Positions 7,942-31,188 of a DNA stretch of 32,000 bases are shown here, piece by piece (the stretch's first letter is position 1; every line of letters begins with the position of its first letter). The notes under the pieces are model-generated. The model ran no database searches. It was not told where the DNA came from and saw only the letters and a list, made by a program, of their open reading frames with translations. Origin of the DNA: Candidatus Electrothrix yaqonensis (GTDB lineage Bacteria; Desulfobacterota; Desulfobulbia; Desulfobulbales; Desulfobulbaceae). The DNA is taken from assembly GCA_047651235.1 (NCBI GenBank), contig CP178758.1:630001-662000 (forward strand), written 5' to 3'. The position numbers were made by a program, and so were the translations under genes.

Positions 7942-8034
7942 GGCTGAGTTACGGGTAGTTTCCGGTCGGCTCACGCTCTCCTGACGTACAGAAGCGGTCA
8001 GTGAATCTTTTCCGTTGTCGGCGAGGATTTTGAT

Positions 8035-8301
8035 ATGCCTGAATTATGCAGATTCTACAACATCGTCATCAAAATGCTGTTTTCCGACAACGTACAGCAC
8101 AACAAGCCGCACATTCATGTCTACTACAATGAATACGAGGCATCTGTCGGAGTTGACGGGGAATTTCTGGCAGGCAGCCTGCCGGTCAAACAACTGCGGC
8201 TGGTTCTGGCATGGATAACGATCCATGAGGATGAATTGTATGCCGCCTGGAACAAAGCGGTCAGAAATGAACCGTTCGGAAAAATTGAACCGTTAAGATA
8301 A
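8035..8301 (+). CDS. DUF4160 domain protein
   Basis: The N-terminus MPELCRFYNIVIKMLFSDNVQHNKPHIHVYY matches the DUF4160 hallmark (FYGIxIxMYxxDHxPPHFHxxY). Confidence 0.7.
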   Translation: MPELCRFYNIVIKMLFSDNVQHNKPHIHVYYNEYEASVGVDGEFLAGSLPVKQLRLVLAWITIHEDELYAAWNKAVRNEPFGKIEPLR

Positions 8302-8313
8302 GGGAGATGCGGC

Positions 8314-8652
8314 ATGTATACTGTTGATGGCATTGCTTATGCCGGTGAACCTCAGCCCCTTCTCCGGGTTGTCTCAGTGCATCCGCTGAACGACTGGAAA
8401 CTCCGACTGCGCTTTTCCACGGAGGAGGTAAAAATATTTGATTTCAGTCCTCTCCTTGACGACCCCGGCTTCAAACCACTGCAGGATGAAACCGTTTTCA
8501 GAAATGTATCTCTTGAACACGGAGTTCCTGTCTGGTGCAGCGGCCAAATAGATATTGCTCCGGAAAAACTCTATCAGGGCGGAATATCGGAAGATAATCC
8601 GCCGTCCTGCGACACTTTAGAGCAGGCCGGAAATTCTTCTTCTGTCGCCTAA
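8314..8652 (+). CDS. DUF2442 domain protein
   Basis: Pattern …VVSVHPLNDWKLRLRFSTEEVKIFDFSPLLD…PLQDETVFRNVSLEHGVPVW… is typical of DUF2442. It starts 13 nt after the DUF4160 gene, the classical pairing. Confidence 0.7.
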   Translation: MYTVDGIAYAGEPQPLLRVVSVHPLNDWKLRLRFSTEEVKIFDFSPLLDDPGFKPLQDETVFRNVSLEHGVPVWCSGQIDIAPEKLYQGGISEDNPPSCDTLEQAGNSSSVA

Positions 8653-8671
8653 AGGCGGAATCTAAAAAATA

Positions 8672-9340
8672 TCATTTTATCGTCTTATTTTGTAACTTCC
8701 ATTCTTCAAGTGTTTCTTTTGATGGATATTTTGTCTTCGATGTAACGATTACAGACTGTATAGCAACAACCTGATGTTTTGTATTATCAAATAATTGAAT
8801 CTGAAATTTAGGGCGTTCTTTTATGTCGTCAATAAAAGGAGCGATAACTTGAAATCTTATTTCTATATCACGCCCTTCGTTGTCAATAAATGGAAATATT
8901 GTACATAACGGTCTGCTTATTTCTTTTTTATTAATATCTAATAGTTTAAAATCGGTTTTTTTATTAGTTGAATTTATTTGACTTATTGATACATTATCAA
9001 TGAATCCAGGAAAGAAGAAAGACTTGTTTTTAATACGAAAACTTGTAATAAGAATATCTTTTTTAACTCCATTTTCATAGGTGGAAAGATGTTCAAATGG
9101 GAGTATTCCTTTAGGACTATATTTTCGATCAATATATAGTTCAGGTTTTCCATTATATTTAATGTAATTAGTCATAAATGGAGCTGAGAAAGCTGCTGCA
9201 ATACCTATGATAGGTAGTATTTTACTCAATTTACTTATTATAGATTTCTTCTTTTTTATATTATTTACTCGCGTTACAGGTCGTTTTGTTTGTCGCGTTT
9301 TATTAGATCGATTTCTCTTGTTACGTCTTTTCTTTTTCAT
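8672..9340 (-). CDS. Hypothetical membrane-anchored protein with polybasic N-terminus
   Basis: The 222-aa ORF is markedly AT-rich. It has a K/R-rich N-terminus (MKKKRRNKRNRSNKTRQTKR…), one TM helix (ILPIIGIAAAFSAPFM), then a beta-rich domain. I recognise no family. Confidence 0.5.
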   Translation of the reverse strand: MKKKRRNKRNRSNKTRQTKRPVTRVNNIKKKKSIISKLSKILPIIGIAAAFSAPFMTNYIKYNGKPELYIDRKYSPKGILPFEHLSTYENGVKKDILITSFRIKNKSFFFPGFIDNVSISQINSTNKKTDFKLLDINKKEISRPLCTIFPFIDNEGRDIEIRFQVIAPFIDDIKERPKFQIQLFDNTKHQVVAIQSVIVTSKTKYPSKETLEEWKLQNKTIK

Positions 9341-9438
9341 CGTTACTTTTCAAACTATTATATGATCCGACTAAGGAGAGTACTTGACACCCCGGTCCAA
9401 AGGACGGGGTCATTCATTTTCGTTTTTCCAGCGAAGTT

Positions 9439-10494
9439 CTATTTTTCCTCCTGACGCGGTTTCACCAAGGCTGCCAACCGATCCACCTCCTTACGCAGCC
9501 GCCGCAGCTCCCTGAACATCTCCGGCAGACGGCTGAACACGGCAGATGCCCTGCCCCATTTTTTCACATCAATGGCCGGAATCCCGCCGACAACGGCTCC
9601 TTTCTTCTGATCGTTATGCACACCGGATTTCCCCGCGACCATCACGCCGTCATCAAGATGTACATGCCCCGTGACAGCGGCCTGACCGGCTATAATAACA
9701 TTGCGGCCCAAGGTCGTGCTGCCGGCAATTCCGGCTTGACCGACTAAAATTGAATTTTCCCCGATCACGCAGTTATGCGCGACCATGACCAGATTGTCAA
9801 TGCGAACCCCGCGTTTCACGTGGGTTACGTTGAAGGCGGCCCGGTCCACGCAGGCATTTGCGCCGATCTGCACGTCATCATCAAGCCGTACTGTCCCCAC
9901 CTGGGGATTACTGACGTGTTCACCGGTGGCCGGGTCTATGGCAAAGCCGAACCCGTCACTGCCTATAATCGCCCCGTGATGGAGCACCACCCGGTTACCG
10001 AGAGAGCAGCCGTATGACACAACAGCATTGGCGTGCAACACGCAGTCATCGCCGATCCGGACATCATCCCCGATCACCACACCCGGCGCAATCAGCACCC
10101 GGTCGCCGATGCTTACCCGGTCGCCGATACAGGCCAGAGCAGCAATGGAAACCTGCTCACTGATTGTGCAGTCCCTGCCGATAACCGCCCGTTCATGAAT
10201 CCCTGCCACCTGAAATTCCTCGGCCAGCAGGTAATTATGAATCTTGGCTGCAGAAAGATCGACATTATCGACGCGGATCAGCGGGATTTCCGCCTCACTG
10301 AAATCCACCGGAACAATGCAGGCTGATGCCTTGCTTGCGGCCAGCTGGTCAGCCAGTTTTGCGTTGTTAATAAAGGTCAGCTGACCGGGCTCGGCCAACT
10401 CCAAATTATTCAGAGTCGTGACCGTGATACGTTCATCGCCGGAAACTGTCCCGCCGACCAGAGCGGCGAGTTCACCAAGGGTTGCTGTGTTCAT
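9439..10494 (-). CDS. lpxD: UDP-3-O-(3-hydroxyacyl)glucosamine N-acyltransferase LpxD
   Basis: LpxD-type N-terminal domain (LGELAALVGG…) followed by a long left-handed beta-helix of hexapeptide repeats and a C-terminal helical tail. Confidence 0.9.
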   Translation of the reverse strand: MNTATLGELAALVGGTVSGDERITVTTLNNLELAEPGQLTFINNAKLADQLAASKASACIVPVDFSEAEIPLIRVDNVDLSAAKIHNYLLAEEFQVAGIHERAVIGRDCTISEQVSIAALACIGDRVSIGDRVLIAPGVVIGDDVRIGDDCVLHANAVVSYGCSLGNRVVLHHGAIIGSDGFGFAIDPATGEHVSNPQVGTVRLDDDVQIGANACVDRAAFNVTHVKRGVRIDNLVMVAHNCVIGENSILVGQAGIAGSTTLGRNVIIAGQAAVTGHVHLDDGVMVAGKSGVHNDQKKGAVVGGIPAIDVKKWGRASAVFSRLPEMFRELRRLRKEVDRLAALVKPRQEEK

Positions 10495-18900: not shown

Positions 18901-20562
18901 CTACCGCCCCTTGATTTCCGCCCGCACCGCTTCCAATGCCTTGCGTTCCCATTCCAGATCAGGATGCCCGATGGCCTCTTCAATCTCCACGGTGCGGGCC
19001 ATGTACTGCTCCGCCTTGGCAAGGTCTCCCTGCTTCTTGTAGATCATGCCGATGTTCCAGCTCGTCACTGCCTCTCCTGCCCGGTCGCCGATCTCTTGGT
19101 GTATAGCAAGAGCCTGCTCCAGATACTTGAGGGCCGTGTCGTACTCGCCCCGTGCCTTGTAAATCTGGCCGATGTTGTTCAGGGTGGTGCCTTCCTGACT
19201 CCTATCACCGATCTCCCGGCAGATGGCAAGGCTCTGCTCCAGATACTTGAGGGCCGTGCCGTAATCACCCCGTGCATCGTAAATCTGGCTGATGTTGTTC
19301 AGGGTGGTGCCTTCCCCTGCCCGGTCGCCGATCTCTTGGCGGATGGCAAGGCTCTGCTCCAGGTACTTGAGGGCCGTGTCGTAGTCGCCCCGTGCATCAT
19401 AAATCTGGCTGATGTTGTTTAGGGTGGTGCCTTCCCCGGCCCGGTCGCCGATCTCCTGGCGGATGGCAAGGCTCTGCTCCAGATACTTGAGGGCCGTAGC
19501 GTAGTCGCCCTTGGCGTATGCAGTCGTGGCAAGGTTGTTCAGGGTGGTGCCTTCCCCTGCCCGGTCGCCGATCTCTTGGTAGATAGCAAGGCTCTGCTCC
19601 AGATACTTGAGGGCCGTGGCATAGTCGCCCCGTGCCTTGTAAATCTGGCTGATGTTGTTCAGCGTCGTGCCTTCCCCGGCCCGGTCGCCGATCTCTTGGC
19701 GGATGGTAAGGCTCTGCTCCAGATACTTGAGGGCCGTGGCATAGTCGCCCCGTGCCCGATGAATGCCTGCGATGTTATTCAGGGTGGTGCCTTCCCCGGC
19801 CCGGTCGCCGATCTCTTGGCGGATGGTAAGGCTCTGCTCCAGATACTTGAGGGCCGTGGCATAGTCGCCCCGTGCATCATAAATCTGGCTGATGTTGTTC
19901 AGGGTGGTGCCTTCCCCGGCCCGGTCGCCGATCTCTTGGCTGATAGCAAGGCTCTGCTCATACAGGGGCAGGGCCTCGCTGTACCGGGCAATGCGGTACA
20001 GGTCATTGCCTGCCTCGTTCAGGTAGTAGGCCCGATCCTTCTTCTCCCCCTCCGGCAGCAGGGCAGCAGCCTTTTGCCAGTACTCTGCCGCCTTGGCATA
20101 GCGCAACTGTACTTCCTGCAACTTAGCCTGGTCAACATTGGTTGTGGCCGCAGAGATACGCCGCTGCCGGGCAGCCTGCTCCATCTCCTCAATGGCCGCA
20201 AGGTCACGGGCCTCGGCCTGGTTCAACAAGTCCTCAGCCTTAGTGTACTCACCCGCCTCAATGGCCTGCCCGGCCTCCTGCTTCAGGCGTTGCACCTCCG
20301 GGTCTGCGGACTGCACTGTTGCCAGCCGGGCCAGCAGTTCCTTGTGGGTGGCGGCAATCTCCCGCAGCTTGGCATCCAGGTCGCCAGGCGGCACCTGCTG
20401 CTCCTCCAGTATCTTAAAGAAGCTGGCAAGGGCGGACTCGGTGACGGCCAAGTTGCCTGCAAGCTCGGCAAAGTCCTTGGAGGAGAGGCCGTAGTTCACA
20501 TCGCGGCCCGCAACAACATTACCGCTCCCCCACAGCCTCTGGATGAGTCTCTGCAGCATCAT
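18901..20562 (-). CDS. TPR-repeat protein, paralog 2 (eight 40-aa units)
   Basis: 553 aa with the same coiled-coil plus TPR architecture as paralog 1. The start ATG overlaps the stop of the upstream small ORF (ATGA). Confidence 0.85.
   Translation of the reverse strand: MMLQRLIQRLWGSGNVVAGRDVNYGLSSKDFAELAGNLAVTESALASFFKILEEQQVPPGDLDAKLREIAATHKELLARLATVQSADPEVQRLKQEAGQAIEAGEYTKAEDLLNQAEARDLAAIEEMEQAARQRRISAATTNVDQAKLQEVQLRYAKAAEYWQKAAALLPEGEKKDRAYYLNEAGNDLYRIARYSEALPLYEQSLAISQEIGDRAGEGTTLNNISQIYDARGDYATALKYLEQSLTIRQEIGDRAGEGTTLNNIAGIHRARGDYATALKYLEQSLTIRQEIGDRAGEGTTLNNISQIYKARGDYATALKYLEQSLAIYQEIGDRAGEGTTLNNLATTAYAKGDYATALKYLEQSLAIRQEIGDRAGEGTTLNNISQIYDARGDYDTALKYLEQSLAIRQEIGDRAGEGTTLNNISQIYDARGDYGTALKYLEQSLAICREIGDRSQEGTTLNNIGQIYKARGEYDTALKYLEQALAIHQEIGDRAGEAVTSWNIGMIYKKQGDLAKAEQYMARTVEIEEAIGHPDLEWERKALEAVRAEIKGR
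18985..19944. repeat. 8 x 120-bp coding tandem repeat (TPR units) in paralog 2
   Basis: The same 120-nt unit as in paralog 1. Seven units are near-identical and the terminal unit is divergent. Confidence 0.85.
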
Positions 20563-20798
20563 TGCCGCTCCACCTTCACATCACCGGTACCGGAGACGAT
20601 ATTGCTGTCCCCCTTCACTGCCTGGTTGACCCGTACCTCCTCAGCACCGGCAGCACGGCCTCTGCCCCTGTGGAACAGAGGAGCGAACAGTCTGGTAATG
20701 AGGAAGTACAGGACACCGAGTGCTGTCAACCCCGTACCGCTCCAGGTTACCTCCGGATGTTCCTTCAGATACTGCAGTATGTCAGCAAGCTGTTCCAT
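20559..20798 (-). CDS. Small single-pass membrane protein translationally coupled to TPR paralog 2
   Basis: MEQLADILQYLKEHPEVTWSGTGLTALGVLYFLITRLFAPLF-HRGRGR…KGDSNIVSGTGDVKVERQ*. A GGAGGGA RBS precedes the ATG at 20798. The tail motif SGTGDVKV matches SGTGNVTV in the N-terminus of paralog 1. Confidence 0.5.
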   Translation of the reverse strand: MEQLADILQYLKEHPEVTWSGTGLTALGVLYFLITRLFAPLFHRGRGRAAGAEEVRVNQAVKGDSNIVSGTGDVKVERQ

Positions 20799-21004
20799 AT
20801 GGACTCCCTCCATTCAGTAGGATATCATCGGTCAACCTCCTCACCATAACCCAATATCCCGCCTTCCTCCAGCAGAAACAGCCTGCCGGGCCGGAGAGCA
20901 GACCCCGCCTGCTCCTCCGCCTGAGCCGATTGAGGACAAAGCTGTAGTGCTCGGCAGTCTCCTCAGCGACCGACAGGGCGGGGCCGCAAGGTTCCGCCTT
21001 TCTT

Positions 21005-21469
21005 TTATGCCCGGCCTGCCCAGTTGATGCGCAGAACAAGCTCCCGGACTGTTTCGTAGATCTTCTCGTCACTGCCAGCCCTTGGCCCGGCGATATTCAG
21101 TACGCTGACCGCATGTTTTGACAGCCATTGTTCAACCGTGCGGACAGCGCTGTCTATGGCGTAATATTCCATATTGAGATGCAGACAGGGGCGGTCATAG
21201 CGGATCGCCAGGGCTTCGGTCAGGGCGGAACCGCCGGTGAGCGGCCCGGACGAGACGATCAGGGTGGCGTCGCTTTCCACCACATTTTTCCGGGTCCGGT
21301 CCCGGTAGCGGTACGAGTCGAGTTCCTGCAGGCAGTAATGCTGGGCAAGCGGGCCGTCTTCTGTTATTCTGCCGCGCGGCAGCCAGCCGCCGTGGGGGAT
21401 ACCCAGCTCTATGGCGGCATCCAGAGCAGCGCGGTCAGCCCCTGTCTGCCCTCCTGAAATAATCTTCAT
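21005..21469 (-). CDS. Circularly permuted YpsA/SLOG-family protein (formerly 'putative molybdenum carrier')
   Basis: MKIISGGQTGADRAALDAAIELGIPHGGWLPRGRITEDG…RTRKNVVESDATLIV is a hallmark of this family. The internal ATG at 21469 with an AGGA RBS was used. Confidence 0.6.
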   Translation of the reverse strand: MKIISGGQTGADRAALDAAIELGIPHGGWLPRGRITEDGPLAQHYCLQELDSYRYRDRTRKNVVESDATLIVSSGPLTGGSALTEALAIRYDRPCLHLNMEYYAIDSAVRTVEQWLSKHAVSVLNIAGPRAGSDEKIYETVRELVLRINWAGRA

Positions 21470-21596
21470 ATCCTGTTTTTCCTGTCCGTTTGTCGTTTCC
21501 GGCTTGGCAGACAGCGGATAATAACGTATTTTTTTCTTATAGGCATCTTCTTCCTGTTGCGCAACCGTTAATTCCCTGAATGCGGAGGGCCGGATC

Positions 21597-22631
21597 ATGA
21601 GAGAGGCAGAGCTGTACATCTGGGAAAAGGACAAAATGGTTGCATGTTCTCTCTGCAGTCACCGCTGTCATATCGGGATAGGAAAACGGGGGATCTGTGG
21701 GGTCCGGGAGAATCGGGACGGAAATCTGTATTCCCTGGTGTACGGCAGGCTGATTGCCGGAAGCGCTGATCCGATTGAAAAAAAACCGCTTTTTCATTTT
21801 CTTCCGGCAAGCCGTTCCTATTCTGTTGCCACAGTGGGCTGCAATTTTTCCTGTCAGCATTGTCAGAACTACCGTATTTCCCGGTATCCGCAGATACATC
21901 GGGGCAGGATTTCGGGCACTCGCTTTACTCCGGAGCAGGTTGTCGAGGCTGCGGAACAGAGCGGCTGCCAAAGCATCAGCTATACCTATGTGGAACCGAC
22001 CATTTTTTATGAATTTGCCCGCGACTGCATGGAGCTGGCCCATGAACGGGGCCTGGCCAATATCTTTGTCAGCAACGGCTACATGACCCCGGAATGCTGC
22101 CGGGAACTCACCTCTCTGCTTGACGGTATCAACATTGACATCAAAGCATTTTCTGATGATTTTTATCGGACGGTCTGTAAAGCATCCCTGCAGCCTGTCC
22201 TGGATACCGTGCGTTTAATGCGGGAACTCGGAGTCTGGGTGGAGGTAACCACGCTGGTTATTCCCGACCTGAACGATTCGGCTGAAGAACTGCGGAACAT
22301 CGCCGCCTTCATCAGCAGTATCGACCCGGCAATTCCCTGGCATGTGAGCGGTTTCCATCCGACATACAAGATGAAAGACCGGGAACCGACCTCACTGGCT
22401 TCCTTGGATGGAGCGCGGCGGATCGGACTGGACATGGGGCTGCGTTATGTGTATGAGGGCAATATCCGCACTGATAACGGAGAAAGTACCTTCTGTCCGA
22501 CCTGCAGGGCAGAACTGATCTCCCGGAGCGGTTTTCTGGTCCGCAGCAACCGGCTCGATAACAACGGCAGGTGTCCCTCCTGCGGAAAGCATATTGAAGG
22601 CTGCTGGCAGTTTTCCGCTGAACGATTGTGA
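21597..22631 (+). CDS. AmmeMemoRadiSam-system radical SAM enzyme (PflA-like activase fold)
   Basis: N-terminal Cys cluster (CSLCSHRC…GICGVR) and the radical-SAM motif CNFSCQHCQN. A C-terminal zinc-ribbon-like pair, CPTC…CPSCG, is also present. Confidence 0.8.
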   Translation: MREAELYIWEKDKMVACSLCSHRCHIGIGKRGICGVRENRDGNLYSLVYGRLIAGSADPIEKKPLFHFLPASRSYSVATVGCNFSCQHCQNYRISRYPQIHRGRISGTRFTPEQVVEAAEQSGCQSISYTYVEPTIFYEFARDCMELAHERGLANIFVSNGYMTPECCRELTSLLDGINIDIKAFSDDFYRTVCKASLQPVLDTVRLMRELGVWVEVTTLVIPDLNDSAEELRNIAAFISSIDPAIPWHVSGFHPTYKMKDREPTSLASLDGARRIGLDMGLRYVYEGNIRTDNGESTFCPTCRAELISRSGFLVRSNRLDNNGRCPSCGKHIEGCWQFSAERL

Positions 22632-22650
22632 CTGAAAGCTGGAGGCAATA

Positions 22651-23877
22651 ATGCGGCTTCAGAGTTCTACGTCTCCTTTTTCGGGTCGGGGAAGAATTAT
22701 TCTTTTTGCTGCAGCCCTGGCAGGAGCTTTTCTGGCCGGGGTTTTTCTGGCAAAGAAATATTCGGCACGTCAGCCTCCGGAAGAATCGGAACCGCTGCAC
22801 GTTGAACAGCCGAAGATGCCCCCCGCAGAGGAGACCGGAAAACCGGAAACCTCGCCCTCCCCTGCCGCACAGGAAAAATTTTCCTTTCTGGAACAGTGTA
22901 CAGAACCTCATCTTGTTTTTTCTTCTCCTTTTTTTCTACCTGAAGAACCCGATCAATTGAACCTGGTAGAATTTGAACAACTCGCGCAGGTAAAGGAGGA
23001 ACAGGAAGAAAAGGAAGAACCTGAGCAGCCGGATCAACAGAAAATTCTGGAGGAACAGGAGAAGGCGGAAACGCCGAAACCGAAAGTGAAAGTACTGGCT
23101 GCACGTGCTGCTCAACCCGGCAAATTGAACCTAGTAAAATTTGAACAGCTCGCACAGATAAAGAAAGAACCTGAGCAGCCGGATCAACAGAAGAACGCAG
23201 AAACGCCGGAACTGAAAATATTGGCCGTAAATGCCAGAAAAAAAGCAATACAGAACAAGGCGGAAATTCGCAGGAGAGGTCAGGCTCGATTTGTTCAACA
23301 GGAAATAGTTACCTGCAGCGGAGGTATGCTGCCTGCCTTGCGCCAGGTCGTGGCCAACTTGGAGGCACAATCAATCCGGTACGCCAGGGGTCCGCTGAGT
23401 GATTGTTCCGGTATATTTCATCGCGTCCTTCAGGGCATGCAGCGGTGTTGTCCCGGATATGCCTATCCCTCGGTAACGCAGTATCGGGATTCCAGAGCGA
23501 TTGCCCGCTGGTATCATGAGCGGGGCAGACTGGTGCTTGTCAACGATGCTCTGCAGAATACGCATCTGATCAGACCGGGCATGGTCTTTTTTTTCGGACG
23601 GACCGGTAAGCGCTATAAAAAATTAACCGTACCGCAGGTGCTGTCACGCTGGAGCGGTATTTATCATGTCGGTATTGTGGTCCGGGTGCATCGGGATAAA
23701 CGGGGCAGGGTAGTACGGTATGAGCTTTTTCACGGCCACGGCAGAAGAGGCAGGACTCCGGCCTCCACCACGGCCTGGCACCGCCGGAACCCGAGCAGAT
23801 CGGTCTATCCGCCCTTCGGCAACGGTCGGCAGCAGTGGATCGCTGCTGCGCCTCTGCTGGGGTCCGGGAAAAGATGA
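22651..23877 (+). CDS. Membrane-anchored protein with duplicated acidic linker and a C-terminal NlpC/P60-like domain
   Basis: N-terminal TM helix (IILFAAALAGAFLAGVFLA). An E/Q/P/K-rich linker contains an internal duplication (22954-23110 versus 23122-23235). The C-terminus carries PLSDCSGIFHRV…YHVGIVV…HGHG, which resembles the Cys/His core of NlpC/P60. Confidence 0.45.
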   Translation: MRLQSSTSPFSGRGRIILFAAALAGAFLAGVFLAKKYSARQPPEESEPLHVEQPKMPPAEETGKPETSPSPAAQEKFSFLEQCTEPHLVFSSPFFLPEEPDQLNLVEFEQLAQVKEEQEEKEEPEQPDQQKILEEQEKAETPKPKVKVLAARAAQPGKLNLVKFEQLAQIKKEPEQPDQQKNAETPELKILAVNARKKAIQNKAEIRRRGQARFVQQEIVTCSGGMLPALRQVVANLEAQSIRYARGPLSDCSGIFHRVLQGMQRCCPGYAYPSVTQYRDSRAIARWYHERGRLVLVNDALQNTHLIRPGMVFFFGRTGKRYKKLTVPQVLSRWSGIYHVGIVVRVHRDKRGRVVRYELFHGHGRRGRTPASTTAWHRRNPSRSVYPPFGNGRQQWIAAAPLLGSGKR

Positions 23878-24057
23878 TGGCGTTATGCTTATACGGATCA
23901 GTTAGAAGATAATAATTTCATACAGATAGGGGTTACGCAGTTTGTTTTACAACCAGTTGATTTTGTTCAACTGATGGTTTGTAGTTCTAACAAACGAACC
24001 TACTGTAACAACTGTACTTCCTGTTTTAACTGCTTGATTGAAAATCAAGAGGTTGTT

Positions 24058-25023
24058 ATGCAGATTAACAGAAAGAAAAATTTTATATCTATGTTATCAG
24101 TTGCTGCTCTGATCATTTTTACCGGCAGCTCTGCTGCAGCATTCGCCGATGATACATCAGATCAAAACCATAATACAGAAACGAACTGGATGGTGGAGTA
24201 CGTGCAGTCACGGGTAATAGAAAGAACCCTGAGGGACATTCCGGACGGTACTGCCAAGGCACAGCTGCGCTCTATAATCACAGCGAGAATAGTTGGCGGT
24301 ACAAACGCCGGAACGGATGATAATCCATTCCAGGTTGCATTGCTGGACAAAGCGCAGGCTGATAATTATCAAGCGCAGTTCTGCGGCGGCACTTTGGTGC
24401 AACCAAATTTTGTAGTTACTGCAGCGCATTGCAGTGATTTCACTACTGCTGATCAGGTACAGGTGCTCACCGGCACCAGACGTTTAGATGGTACCGGTGA
24501 ACGCCGCGATGTCGTAAGAATTGCTGTCCATCCGGAATGGAGCGACATCACATTCGATAATGACGTTGCTGTCTGGAAATTGTCCACCAACGCAACCGAT
24601 ATCCCCTTGGCCTCGCTTGCAACGGCAGATGGAGCGGTGGGTGAAAACCTGCTTGCAACCGGATGGGGCACTCTTTCCGAGGGAGGTGTCCGCCCAGTCG
24701 ATCTCCAACGGGTGGAGGTACCTCTTGTCGATAGAACAAATTGCAACGATTCCGACTCATACAACGGGGCAGTTACAGAAAACATGCTTTGCGCCGGTCT
24801 GGATGGAGGTGGAAAAGATGCCTGCCAGGGTGATTCCGGCGGCCCGCTTACACGGGGCAATGTATTGACCGGAATTACAAGTTGGGGGACGGGGTGCGCT
24901 CAACCGAATCTCTACGGCGTCTATACCCGTGTTTCAAAAGAAAACATCAGGCAATTCATCAAGGAAGAAATCGGCAGTTACAATATACTCCTTTTTATTC
25001 CGGCTATCTTGGGCGGAAATTGA
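24058..25023 (+). CDS. Secreted trypsin-like serine protease (S1 family)
   Basis: Signal peptide (…IIFTGSSAAAFADD), an IVGG mature N-terminus, and the catalytic triad contexts TAAHC, DNDVAVWKL and CQGDSGGPL. RBS AAGAGG lies before the ATG at 24058. Confidence 0.85.
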   Translation: MQINRKKNFISMLSVAALIIFTGSSAAAFADDTSDQNHNTETNWMVEYVQSRVIERTLRDIPDGTAKAQLRSIITARIVGGTNAGTDDNPFQVALLDKAQADNYQAQFCGGTLVQPNFVVTAAHCSDFTTADQVQVLTGTRRLDGTGERRDVVRIAVHPEWSDITFDNDVAVWKLSTNATDIPLASLATADGAVGENLLATGWGTLSEGGVRPVDLQRVEVPLVDRTNCNDSDSYNGAVTENMLCAGLDGGGKDACQGDSGGPLTRGNVLTGITSWGTGCAQPNLYGVYTRVSKENIRQFIKEEIGSYNILLFIPAILGGN

Positions 25024-25305
25024 GTGTTCAGCCTCACAATTTTTTTTGCTGATTTAACAGGAGGTCCAGCTGCGTAGCAGTTATATTGCTGGCAGAGTTG
25101 TCGTGTGGTATGCAAAGGTCTTCTGGATGGACGGCCTTTTTCTATTTCAGGTAGATCAACCAGTATCCGGAATGCGCTGGAATGAAATGCGCTTTACTTC
25201 AGGCCAGAGGGCTGTTAAAAATAGCTGTGCACCGAGCGATTGGTGCAGGCGCTGGTGCGGGGATTGGATTTATTTTATTTATGACTACAGTTGCAGCAGG
25301 ATAAG

Positions 25306-27147
25306 ATGAACGATTTGTCATCAGCAATTGAAACATTATATGAAAACAGGCAGAAGTTTATCGTAATTGGGCTGACAGGGAGGACAGGTTCAGGGTGTAC
25401 TTCAACAGCTGAATTGCTCAAACAGGACATTCAGACTTTAAAACTCCCTAAGCCACATATTGTAAATAAAAATGAAGAGAGAAAATATCGAATTGTTTAC
25501 GAATTTGCTAGCAGTAATTGGAAGCCATTCCATGTGATCCAAGTAAAAGATGTAATAACTTCATTTATTTTGGAAAACCCCTTTGATAAATTTCTCGCCT
25601 ACGTAACTGAAAAAATAGAACATGAAAATATAGAGTCGCTTCTAAAAAAGAATATAGAAGAAGAATATTCAAAGCTTCACGAGGAAAGAGTTTTTCTTAA
25701 AAAATTAAGAAAGAAGATGGAAAAACGGAATAAAGTAAATAAGAAAAAAACAGAAGAACGTCGAGAGAAGTCCTATAAATTTTATTTTGAAAAACTTCCT
25801 CCATTCACAGAGAAACTAAAAAAAATTTTAAACGATCTTGCTGGTGATAGCTATACGTCACTCTATCAAGTTGCTGGAAACAATATACGGTCATCAGGTA
25901 ATGCCCTTGACGAAAATTTCGATTCAAAAAATATCCTGAGACTGGCCATAAGAGCAAATAAACTAATAAAAATATTTACAAACTTGGCTAAGGCAAACAA
26001 AGAAGAAGTATATATTGTTATTGATGCTATACGGAATCCATTTGAAGCAATTTTTTTTCGAGAACGCTATGCCGCATTCTACTTAATGTCTATTAACACA
26101 GATAATAACGATAGAATTTATAGATTGAAAAAACTCCTTGATCTTAATGACAGTCAACTAGCAAGTATTGACAATAATGAATATGAAAAGAAATTAAGAG
26201 AAGCCGAGGTATTCTACTCTCAAGATATATCAAAATGTATAGAATTAGCAGATATACATATAAATAATCCTCAAAAAGGTGAAAACGATTTCATAACGCT
26301 CAAAAGACAGTTATCTTGTTATATTGCTCTGATAATGCATCCTGGGTTAATAACTCCTTCAAGTACAGAACGTTGCATGCAGGTAGCATATACTGCAAAG
26401 TTAAATTCAGCATGCCTTTCCAGGCAAGTAGGTGCTGCTGTAGCAGACAGAAATTTTTCGATCAAATCTATTGGCTGGAACAACTCTCCTGAAGGGCAAC
26501 CTCCATGTGCTTTAAGAAATATAGAGCATCTTATTGATAACGAAGACCAAGAAGCATATAGTCACTATGAAAAGTATAATAAAAATTTTAGAGATTTCGT
26601 AAGAAATAGATATCAAGACAAAATTGATTCTCAAGAGATACGAGATAAACTTTGCGGACGAAATATATCTTATTGTTTCAAAGATCTTCAAAATAGTTTA
26701 GAGGAAGAAAAAAATCAAGTTCATACCCGTTCATTACATGCAGAGGAAAATGCATTCTTACAACTGGCAAAATATGGTGGATCAGGTATTCAAGGAGGAA
26801 TATTATTTACAACTGCCAGTCCTTGTGAATTATGCTCAAAGAAAGCCTACCAGCTTGGAATAAAGAGAATAATTTTCATTGATCCCTATCCTGGAATTGC
26901 CAAGGAGCATGTTTTAGATATTGGTGCAACAATTCCAAAGTTAGAACTTTTTCACGGAGCAATAGGCCGGGCTTTCAATCAGCTTTTCGAGCCTATTTTA
27001 CCCTATAAAGATGAGCTGTCTTTCATTCTCAATACCGAATGGCCCCGACATATTGTCGAACTGGCAGGGAGCTGGAAAGGCGCTTTTCCTTCTGCCGAGG
27101 AGCTGCGCTCGAATAACGGTAAGGATTTTCCGAGAGAAGATCTGTAG
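25306..27147 (+). CDS. P-loop (kinase-like) / CMP-dCMP-type deaminase fusion of the anti-phage dCTP-deaminase type, with a chimeric 3' tail
   Basis: N-terminal P-loop IVIGLTGRTGSGCTS, with Cys where the Walker A Lys is expected. The C-terminal deaminase zinc motifs are HAEENA and PCELCSKK. The gene is strongly AT-rich except for the last ~100 nt. The architecture matches the published dCTP-deaminase defence genes as I recall them. Confidence 0.7.
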   Translation: MNDLSSAIETLYENRQKFIVIGLTGRTGSGCTSTAELLKQDIQTLKLPKPHIVNKNEERKYRIVYEFASSNWKPFHVIQVKDVITSFILENPFDKFLAYVTEKIEHENIESLLKKNIEEEYSKLHEERVFLKKLRKKMEKRNKVNKKKTEERREKSYKFYFEKLPPFTEKLKKILNDLAGDSYTSLYQVAGNNIRSSGNALDENFDSKNILRLAIRANKLIKIFTNLAKANKEEVYIVIDAIRNPFEAIFFRERYAAFYLMSINTDNNDRIYRLKKLLDLNDSQLASIDNNEYEKKLREAEVFYSQDISKCIELADIHINNPQKGENDFITLKRQLSCYIALIMHPGLITPSSTERCMQVAYTAKLNSACLSRQVGAAVADRNFSIKSIGWNNSPEGQPPCALRNIEHLIDNEDQEAYSHYEKYNKNFRDFVRNRYQDKIDSQEIRDKLCGRNISYCFKDLQNSLEEEKNQVHTRSLHAEENAFLQLAKYGGSGIQGGILFTTASPCELCSKKAYQLGIKRIIFIDPYPGIAKEHVLDIGATIPKLELFHGAIGRAFNQLFEPILPYKDELSFILNTEWPRHIVELAGSWKGAFPSAEELRSNNGKDFPREDL

Positions 27148-27150
27148 TCC

Positions 27151-27543
27151 ATGTATCTGCTTGATACCAATACGCTGATCTACTTTTTTAAGGGCAAGGG
27201 CAGGGTAGCTGAAAATTTACTTTCCAAGTCACCAAAAGAGATCGCTGTCTCTTCTATTGTATTGTTTGAGCTGGAAGTGGGTATCGCCAAATCGGACAGC
27301 CCTGCAAAAAGGCGGCAGCAGTTGAATGTATTGACGTCGGTTATCACCACAATCCCTTTTACATATAAAGAGGCAAAAACTGCGGCAATTATCCGGGCAG
27401 AACTGGAAAAATCGGGCACTCCCATCGGGCCGTATGATACATTAATCGCAGGCACGGCCTTACGTGCCGATTGCGTTCTCGTAACAAATAACACGAAAGA
27501 ATTCTCGCGGGTTGAAAATCTGCAGCTCGAAGATTGGTTTTGA
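27151..27543 (+). CDS. vapC: PIN-domain toxin VapC with no separate antitoxin ORF upstream
   Basis: MYLLDTNTLIYFFKG…VLFELEVG…PIGPYDTLIAGTAL…LVTNNTKEF is a canonical VapC layout. The ATG lies 3 nt after the stop of the deaminase ORF. Confidence 0.85.
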   Translation: MYLLDTNTLIYFFKGKGRVAENLLSKSPKEIAVSSIVLFELEVGIAKSDSPAKRRQQLNVLTSVITTIPFTYKEAKTAAIIRAELEKSGTPIGPYDTLIAGTALRADCVLVTNNTKEFSRVENLQLEDWF

Positions 27544-27580: not shown

Positions 27581-28660
27581 ATGCTGAAAAACGAACTTGA
27601 TGTCACCCTGAACAGGACAGAAACCCTGAAGAAAAAGCCGGATCAGAATAAGCTGGGATTCGGTCAGTATTTCACCGATCACATGCTGACCATGCGCTGG
27701 AACAGGGAACAGGGGTGGCATGATGCGGAAATCAGGCCCTACGGCAACTTCAGCCTTGATCCCGCTGCAATGGCCTTGCATTACAGCCAGGAGATCTTTG
27801 AGGGGCTCAAAGCCTACCGAGGGGCTGACGATTCGGTGCTTCTGTTCCGGCCTATGGATAACCTCCATCGCTTCAATGCCTCGGCAGTCCGCATGTGTAT
27901 GCCTCGTATTCCGGCGGACAAGGTGCTGCAGGCTCTAAAAGGATTAATTTACCTTGAGCGGGACTGGATTCCGCAGAATGAAGGTGCAGCCCTGTATATC
28001 CGGCCTGCCATGATTGCCAGCGAAGCGGCTCTGGGCGTCCGGCCGGCCAATGAATATCTGTTTTTCATTATTTGCAGCCCGGTGGGCGCCTATTATGCGG
28101 AAGGCTTCAGTCCGACCAGAATTTATGTTGAAGATCAGTATGTCCGGGCTGTACGGGGCGGGGTGGGCAATGTCAAAACCGGGGGCAATTATGCAGCCTC
28201 CATCAGGGCTCACACCGAATCCCGACAGAAGGGCTACACCCAGGTACTATGGCTGGATGCTGTTGAGCGGAAATACGTTGAAGAAGTGGGCACTTCAAAT
28301 ATCTTTTTTGTCATCAATGATGAACTGATCACCCCGCCGCTGGGCGGCACCATCCTGCCCGGCATCACCCGCGACACTGTACTGCAGCTGGCTGCGGACT
28401 GGAGTCTCAGCACCTGCGAACGCCGCATCACCATTGACGAGGTCATGGCTGCGGCTGCGGACGGCTCGCTGAGCGAAGCCTTCGGCTCAGGTACGGCCGC
28501 AGTGATTTCACCCATCGGCGAACTGGGGTATCAGGGAAACTCTATCATGATCGACAACGGCACAACCGGGCCGCTTGCCCAACGTTTTTTTGATGGCATC
28601 CAGCAGCTGCAGCGCGGCGCAGCCCCGGACCCGCATAACTGGACTGTCCGGGTAAAATAA
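27581..28660 (+). CDS. ilvE: Branched-chain amino acid aminotransferase
   Basis: Class IV aminotransferase motifs (FGQYFTDHM, EIFEGLKAYR, GNVKTGGNYAAS, EVGTSNIFFV, LPGITR). The ATG at 27581 was used rather than the ORF-track TTG at 27512, which overlaps vapC. Confidence 0.9.
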   Translation: MLKNELDVTLNRTETLKKKPDQNKLGFGQYFTDHMLTMRWNREQGWHDAEIRPYGNFSLDPAAMALHYSQEIFEGLKAYRGADDSVLLFRPMDNLHRFNASAVRMCMPRIPADKVLQALKGLIYLERDWIPQNEGAALYIRPAMIASEAALGVRPANEYLFFIICSPVGAYYAEGFSPTRIYVEDQYVRAVRGGVGNVKTGGNYAASIRAHTESRQKGYTQVLWLDAVERKYVEEVGTSNIFFVINDELITPPLGGTILPGITRDTVLQLAADWSLSTCERRITIDEVMAAAADGSLSEAFGSGTAAVISPIGELGYQGNSIMIDNGTTGPLAQRFFDGIQQLQRGAAPDPHNWTVRVK

Positions 28661-31111: not shown

Positions 31112-31188
31112 GGCGATGTAGCTCAGCCGGTTAGAGCGCACGGCTCATATCCGTGGTGTCCGGGGTTCAAGTCCCTGCATCGCCACCA
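31112..31188 (+). tRNA. tRNA with CAU anticodon (elongator Met type; lysidine-modified Ile2 not excluded)
   Basis: Cloverleaf: acceptor GGCGATG/CATCGCC, D arm GCTC…GAGC, anticodon arm CACGG-CTCATAT-CCGTG, T arm CGGGG-TTCAAGT-CCCTG, with encoded CCA. It lacks the initiator features (C1:A72 mismatch, three consecutive G-C pairs). Confidence 0.9.

Follow-up and report, generated by a model that had tools for sequence, protein, structure and literature searches.

In solved complexes of VapBC, a type II toxin-antitoxin (TA) module with a PIN-domain toxin, a helix of the VapB antitoxin binds a lateral site of VapC, and the extended VapB C-terminus runs in the groove of the VapC dimer, where two arginines eight residues apart (seven intervening) enter both active sites; truncation of this extension weakens antitoxin activity, and type II antitoxins are cited as protease-labile (PMC5389673). 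Crystal structures with only a C-terminal antitoxin fragment on the toxin have been obtained for VapB5 53-86 with VapC5 and for CcdA 37-72 with CcdB (PMC4803016). The other system of relevance here is the anti-phage dCTP deaminase (Tal et al., bioRxiv 10.1101/2021.04.26.441389), described in Vibrio cholerae as DcdV-DifV (Hsueh et al., bioRxiv 10.1101/2021.03.31.437871); DcdV-like defence needs both the N-terminal kinase-like domain and the Zn-binding deaminase motifs, and DcdV tolerates a C-terminal tag. We analysed a 32-kb stretch of the chromosome of Candidatus Electrothrix sp. YB6 (referred to as the window) in which the two systems are joined: a deaminase gene of this kind ends in the toxin-binding half of a VapB antitoxin (fusion protein XOF34281.1) and is directly followed by an intact vapC (XOF34282.1). 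That this chimera arose by a lineage-specific recombination, which joined the deaminase in frame to vapB codons 41-77, is in our view close to certain.

Scans of Pfam and NCBIfam with the C-terminal tail of the fusion protein, and a word-indexed protein search with a 44-amino-acid tail query, gave no match, and the tail was identified through the genes directly upstream of VapC relatives (80 genomic loci). The loci of the closest VapC relatives, in Candidatus Electrothrix aarhusensis (L001) and in an Electrothrix metagenome-assembled genome (L002), each encode a 77-amino-acid antitoxin (MGQVTIYLDNETEDKLKKAAKSSQLSVSRLVADMIKKHVRTEWPQHVVELVGSWKESFPSVEELRSSNGKDSPREKL), residues 41-77 of which align without a gap with the last 37 residues of the fusion protein (...DELSFILNTEWPRHIVELAGSWKGAFPSAEELRSNNGKDFPREDL, followed by TAG). 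Identity is 28 of 37 residues with the antitoxin of Ca. E. aarhusensis and 29 of 37 with the VapB P0122. Searching the window by tblastn with the VapB that precedes the closest VapC orthologue gave a sole significant match in 32 kb, at 27028-27144 (E 2.4e-17, 72% identity). An earlier sequence-only reading of this DNA had remarked that the tail resembles VapB termini, and the resemblance goes far beyond chance; no curated hidden Markov model (HMM) recognises it, and the match comes from the cognate antitoxins upstream of the VapC orthologues.

When the tail was aligned with 115 family members, all the invariant positions (W43, P44, L50, G52, W54 and F58, in VapB numbering) were kept, as were 16 of the 17 positions with at least 90% conservation, including R65, D71, R74 and E75. 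The tail is orthologous to residues 41-77 of the Desulfobulbaceae VapBs, its dN/dS is 0.24 against the E. aarhusensis locus, and its R-x8-R spacing fits the VapB C-terminal pattern defined in PMC5389673. Intact VapB has an RHH_1 match over residues 3-39 (sub-threshold), and AlphaFold2 (AF2) predicts helices at 10-22 and 27-38, the remainder being a short helix and an extended tail; since the ribbon-helix-helix (RHH) domain ends at residue 39, the break at codon 41 sits on a domain boundary. In the 80 VapC loci, tails of this style, which end (D/K)RE-x-(L/F), are joined to RHH, AbrB or other N-terminal domains, so that exchange of the antitoxin front half is normal for this family. An enzyme in place of the front half is an arrangement of which we found no description in the literature.

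Consistently with this assignment, nucleotide homology between the window and L001 and L002 runs from 27034 to ~31259 at ~81% identity, through the 3' half of vapB, vapC, an ilvE-like gene, groES and groEL. Its start at 27034 corresponds to L001 position 3885, where vapB codon 41 begins; homology with a metagenomic locus (L087) begins a few nucleotides earlier, at 27029. On the other side of the junction, the nearest deaminase genes, which share 69-73% nucleotide identity with the window, are homologous to it up to 27020-27026. The nine closest deaminase homologues that were aligned (577-588 amino acids, 75-56% identity; the closest four, 580-583 amino acids, 75-62%) terminate in ...DELSF(V/I)L(G/N)F(K)-stop or a near variant, all before the position of the tail, and given the native end ...LNF(K)-stop, the YB6 gene is short of only 1-2 codons and the stop. 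Intact vapB-vapC-ilvE without a deaminase is present in L001, L002 and L087. VapB residues 1-40 and the conserved ~75 nt upstream of vapB are found nowhere in the window, and no displaced vapB 5' half or promoter was found, including in the 282-nt region upstream of the fusion gene. The sequence-only reading had proposed that the 5' DNA-binding half of vapB was replaced to give an in-frame deaminase::VapB-tail chimera, and had looked to homologous deaminases and to syntenic genomes for its confirmation; both bear it out. Its boundaries needed correction: the captured segment is 37 codons, not ~35, and the junction lies between 27033 and 27034, 6 nt before the start that it had given.

Around 25024-27034 we found neither direct nor inverted repeats at the flanks, no target-site duplications and no signatures of a tRNA or an integrase/recombinase; a site-specific or transposition mechanism was rejected on this ground, and illegitimate recombination is favoured. 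To the left of vapB, L001 has two hsp20 genes and atpDC, L087 has a type I restriction-modification methylase gene, and YB6 has the deaminase after a trypsin-like protease gene (window 25024-27033 compared with L001:1-3764 and L087:1-1215). Since the left flank differs in every relative examined, the left edge of vapBC is a variable spot, which suggests a hotspot of recombination or of defence genes upstream of the vapBC-ilvE-groESL block. The YB6 rearrangement has its right end 120 nt further in than this variable edge.

The fusion open reading frame (ORF) occupies 25306-27147 on the + strand (613 codons from ATG; a TTG at 25291 is also open). Its 3' end reads ...NTEWPRHIVELAGSWKGAFPSAEELRSNNGKDFPREDL, with the stop codon TAG at 27145-27147, and a spacer of 3 nt (tcc, 27148-27150) separates it from the vapC ATG at 27151, the same TAG-tcc-ATG abutment that the sequence-only reading had pointed out. 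It had also noted the lack of an antitoxin ORF upstream of vapC; no separate antitoxin ORF flanks the toxin gene upstream or downstream, either among the ORFs of the window or in a VapB homology search. The change in base composition towards the end of the ORF is sharp, from a GC content of 0.335 (0.255 at third codon positions, GC3) in the deaminase part up to 27033, to 0.535 (GC3 0.526) in the last 37 codons. The features of the locus are as follows.

25024..25305, + strand: upstream intergenic region, 282 nt, GC 0.465; presumed promoter site, presumably now also driving vapC.

25298-25301, + strand: AGGA, candidate ribosome-binding site, within the intergenic region upstream of the fusion gene.

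25306..27033, + strand: deaminase-derived part, codons 1-576, with P-loop kinase-like and Zn-dependent dCMP/dCTP deaminase domains.

27033..27034, + strand: recombination junction AAT/ACC, deaminase codon 576 (Asn) in frame with vapB codon 41 (Thr).

27034..27147, + strand: VapB-derived tail, codons 577-613 and TAG; predicted short helix, then an extended segment with arginines R65 and R74 (VapB numbering).

27132..27140, + strand: purine-rich GAGAGAAGA near the 3' end of the tail sequence, 10 nt ahead of the vapC start codon; the L001 equivalent is AGGGAAAAG.

27151..27543, + strand: vapC, intact PIN-domain toxin of 130 codons, of the tRNA(fMet)-cleaving VapC family.

27581..28660, + strand: ilvE-like class IV aminotransferase (PF01063, E 1.6e-31), opens the conserved right flank on which the synteny is anchored, ahead of groES and groEL.

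The intergenic region 25024-25305 shares no homology with what lies upstream of the deaminase homologues, and it holds no vapB 5' remnant; it has no Rfam match, folds no better than its shuffles (z -0.12), and neither a consensus promoter nor a + strand terminator is predicted in it. Between the fusion ORF and vapC, likewise, no terminator is predicted. From its sequence and place, GAGAGAAGA is likely the Shine-Dalgarno sequence of vapC, inherited from vapB.

The deaminase part is a member of the anti-phage dCTP deaminase family NF041025 of NCBIfam (400.8 bits against a cutoff of 400, covering amino acids 18-568), and the fusion ORF also matches the PADLOC dCTPase model (E 2.9e-142) and Pfam PF00383 (dCMP_cyt_deam_1, E 1.9e-15). 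The Walker A motif GLTGRTGSGC, HAEEN and PCELC all fall in invariant columns of an alignment of 64 homologues, and the enzyme body is confidently modelled by AF2 (pLDDT 86, pTM 0.86). The protein therefore shares with DcdV and the other anti-phage dCTP deaminases the two-domain architecture, the motifs and above-threshold HMM membership; unlike them, it bears a foreign 37-amino-acid C-terminal extension, from an antitoxin, and has a toxin gene next to it. Compared with DcdV-DifV, the locus lacks the native last 1-2 residues as well as a recognisable DifV-like element in the 282-nt upstream region, where Rfam, folding (the z score given above) and homology disclosed none; DifV, the cognate inhibitory small RNA, lies immediately upstream in the known system, and DifV elements are not sequence-conserved.

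Genes of this deaminase family are AT-rich against their flanks in all four contexts compared (the window, L081, L082 and L084; GC 0.33-0.35, GC3 0.23-0.30). AT-richness is thus a trait of the family in every context examined, low GC alone is no proof of a recent arrival, and we rejected it as such. Among the closest deaminase homologues, one with 71% identity is followed by the gene for a HigB toxin and by two small ORFs (L084:1992-2285), so deaminase genes of this clade adjoin TA modules elsewhere too.

The toxin encoded next to the fusion matches PF01850 (E 1.6e-17) and the NCBIfam model for tRNA(fMet)-specific VapC (NF047863, 141.2 bits, cutoff 140), and is 88% identical to its Electrothrix orthologues in L001 and L002. 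Its residues D5, E40, D96 and E117 align with the catalytic acidic residues of VapC from Shigella and Salmonella (structures 3TND and 6IFC); it carries no inactivating change, and its dN/dS is 0.089. In the orthologous loci vapB and vapC are separated by a 2-nt spacer or overlap by 1-4 nt, against the 3 nt of the window. A tRNA-Met (CAT) gene lies at 31112-31188, 3.5 kb downstream of this VapC of an initiator-tRNA-cleaving family; its acceptor stem starts with a paired G1-C72, which makes it look like an elongator or tRNA-Ile2 type and not an initiator. A paralogous vapBC of the same type is found in Ca. Electrothrix communis (L085:8001-8628), between MacB/FtsX-type transporter and acetyltransferase genes, an unrelated context, so that this family is mobile within the genus.

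Compared with type II VapBC modules, whether those of Shigella and Salmonella (3TND, 6IFC), those of Leptospira or the pairs of a 77-amino-acid RHH 'CopG family' VapB and VapC of the Desulfobulbaceae, the locus has the PIN toxin family, the four acidic residues, the gene order and the near-abutting cistrons in common. In contrast to all of these, its antitoxin lacks the RHH DNA-binding domain and the vapB promoter/operator, which implies neither autoregulation nor RHH-mediated dimerisation of VapB, and its toxin-binding segment hangs on a 576-residue enzyme. The VapB5 53-86 and CcdA 37-72 structures also show the C-terminal segment of RHH-type antitoxins to be a separable toxin-binding unit; those are laboratory or crystallographic fragments, whereas here separation and re-attachment arose in a genome. 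At the sequence level, the locus has what characterises the VapBC and deaminase families except for an autoregulating DNA-binding antitoxin and the native deaminase C-terminus, whose last 1-2 residues are swapped for the 37-residue VapB segment. It appears, from its sequence, to work like a VapBC module in which the antitoxin's DNA-binding domain has been exchanged for an enzyme.

Single-polypeptide TA defence proteins exist, for example CapRelSJ46, in which an antitoxin element is covalently attached to another module. Proteins of the CapRel type, and P0246, join an antitoxin to its cognate toxin; in YB6 the antitoxin's partner is an unrelated defence enzyme and VapC stays a separate protein, a stop codon and the 3-nt spacer standing between the tail and vapC. 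P0246 itself is a metagenomic VapB of this family that reads through into VapC (...GKDVPREILQMFALDTNTVIFFFKG...), either a natural fusion or a sequencing error, in an ORF cut by the contig end. TA modules are also known to stabilise neighbouring DNA (integron cassettes, integrative and conjugative elements, genomic islands), loss of the linked DNA removing the antitoxin and freeing the toxin. In the YB6 locus the linkage would lie within one reading frame and not in mere adjacency, so that the antitoxin would be lost even through a frameshift of the defence gene.

The fusion was found in a single genome. It is the sole member of its 90% protein cluster, and the best match after it, 75% identical, ends before the tail. 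An exhaustive phmmer search of 1.84 billion representative proteins with the tail gave 11 matches and no other enzyme::tail chimera: they were ordinary or fragmentary VapBs and two false positives, proteins of 1293 and 254 amino acids with short repeat matches. The junction 24-mer was absent from metagenome contigs of the Joint Genome Institute (JGI), and a protein-guided scan of JGI metagenomes returned normally terminated deaminases only. Two longer fusion-like matches (L092 and L093) were rejected, as the match crosses a stop codon and the genes are ordinary deaminases. Taken together, the arrangement looks like a single lineage-specific accident and not a widespread designed system. Small ORFs that are hardly more than a VapB tail do occur: P0242 (L089:3001-3156), without a PIN gene beside it, is a decayed module, and P0249 abuts an oppositely oriented gene. 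A recurrent break at 'TEWP' in these two ORFs was considered and rejected, VapB homology reaching upstream of the TEWP motif there.

We propose the following sequence of events. Illegitimate recombination in the YB6 lineage most likely set the deaminase gene just upstream of the chromosomal vapBC-ilvE-groESL block; the right-hand junction fell inside vapB, and the vapB promoter/operator and the RHH domain (codons 1-40) were deleted. The fusion protein and VapC would now be made from one transcription unit with adjacent, probably translationally coupled cistrons, vapC being transcribed from the deaminase promoter and VapBC autoregulation being lost. The tail helix would dock on the lateral site of VapC and the extended stretch, with its two arginines, would enter the active-site groove; the tail would bind and silence VapC as its only antitoxin, and the defence enzyme would carry dimers of VapC. 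Deletion, a frameshift or a premature stop in the deaminase ORF would then free VapC, making the deaminase reading frame 'addicted', and the in-frame junction that spared the tail probably let the recombinant survive.

The step on which most depends is whether the tail still neutralises VapC. Since the tail holds the whole toxin-binding module of VapB, it most likely still binds and silences the toxin, and with the conserved positions and the solved complexes as guides we regard a functional tail as rather more probable than an idle one. Chromosomal TA modules usually decay toxin-first (PMC13617665), and the intact VapC counts, against that usual order, for a functional tail. The tolerance of DcdV for a C-terminal tag and the tail-only crystal structures point the same way. 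As to a cognate antitoxin acting in trans, no VapB homologue among the best 120 of 170 matches lies on a contig as long as the YB6 chromosome.

Several points weigh against a functional tail. Antitoxin paralogues beyond the best 120 matches, or of other families, could act in trans, and an in-frame junction has a one-in-three chance anyway. With one genome only, and a dN/dS of the tail that spans the whole divergence from E. aarhusensis, selection after the fusion is inseparable from selection before it. The family-conserved D57 is an alanine in the tail, though this position varies within the Electrothrix clade too, and the two arginines stand one residue further apart than in AbrB-type complexes of known structure. 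Finally, the AF2 model of the fusion shows the tail as a low-confidence, partly helical appendage; the underlying alignment did not cover the tail, so its low confidence says little. With these points counted, the complete account, recombination followed by retention of a working tail, remains the best explanation and one that we hold with moderate confidence.

The strongest competitor is that the fusion is a harmless by-product with an idle tail, VapC being barely expressed now that its own promoter is gone, intrinsically weak or neutralised in trans and the module decaying. The occurrence of the fusion in one genome only speaks for this, as do the chance of an in-frame outcome, the existence elsewhere of tail-only VapB remnants without a partner toxin (such as P0242) and the paralogous vapBC loci of Electrothrix (such as that of E. 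communis). However, the ORF that ends 3 nt before vapC is long and looks expressed, no terminator is predicted between the two and the purine-rich ribosome-binding site of vapC is kept, which makes silence of vapC unlikely; the toxin is undamaged in spite of the usual toxin-first order of decay; and the best 120 matches include no similar VapB on the YB6 chromosome. A neutral relic is accordingly a real possibility, and one we think improbable.

At the opposite end, the chimera could be a working bifunctional protein, both a nucleotide-depleting defence enzyme and the sole antitoxin of VapC, with a self-enforcing reading frame whose truncation unleashes the toxin, and could, when phage attack, couple a second abortive-infection effector to the fate of the first. 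We consider this idea doubtful. Slightly less credible still is an adaptive two-effector defence, in which infection, through shut-off of host transcription or proteolysis of the fusion, would trigger depletion of dCTP together with release of VapC onto initiator tRNA, or in which VapC would mainly make the defence gene un-losable. In its favour, each of the two modules reportedly reacts when a labile inhibitor is lost or the host RNA polymerase is tampered with (the DifV small RNA for DcdV; escape mutants in T7 gp5.7), type II antitoxins are protease-labile (as cited in PMC5389673), tail and VapC are both intact, and the variable spot bears a type I restriction-modification methylase gene in the relative L087. 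On the other hand, nothing supports an instability of the 613-residue protein conferred by the tail, and the arrangement does not recur in other genomes, which argues against a selected, spreading design.

An assembly or sequencing artefact, whether a chimeric join or a lost stop that makes an ORF absent from the organism, might be suspected because the genome comes from the metagenome of an enrichment culture and a look-up of contigs encoding the exact fusion protein gave no match, but it is extremely unlikely: the closed circular chromosome (3,738,687 bp) was obtained from a clonal enrichment culture with Oxford Nanopore reads >10 kb at Q>20 and Illumina polishing (PMC12093952), which makes a misassembly or missed stop improbable, the identical 613-amino-acid protein is also recorded from a second assembly source (Logan), the reading frame is kept across the join, which sits at a boundary between protein domains, and the lost vapB half is more than a single-base matter.

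The left neighbours of the fusion gene, at 18901-21634 (- strand) and 21597-25023 (+ strand), comprise genes for a large TPR protein, a circularly permuted YpsA/SLOG-family protein and a radical SAM enzyme, together with a 408-amino-acid protein without a Pfam match that has an acidic repeat region and the trypsin-like protease, which has a hydrophobic N-terminal segment and is possibly secreted. Pairs of SLOG and TPR proteins occur in conflict systems. Two more low-GC patches, at 1-2000 and 8000-9500 (0.35-0.42 against 0.52 for the window), may be acquired segments.

The locus is a natural experiment in antitoxin modularity: a VapB was severed at a domain boundary, and its toxin-binding half now extends an unrelated 576-residue enzyme, in a living cable bacterium that can be cultured and has kept the toxin intact. 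Should the tail be functional, 37 residues of VapB would serve as a portable neutralising tag, VapBC could manage without autoregulation, and a TA module could police the reading frame of a neighbouring gene, a form of addiction stricter than simple linkage. If the tail is idle, the locus would be a dated snapshot of TA erosion running against the usual toxin-first order. More generally, defence genes that land in TA loci can create new regulatory couplings.

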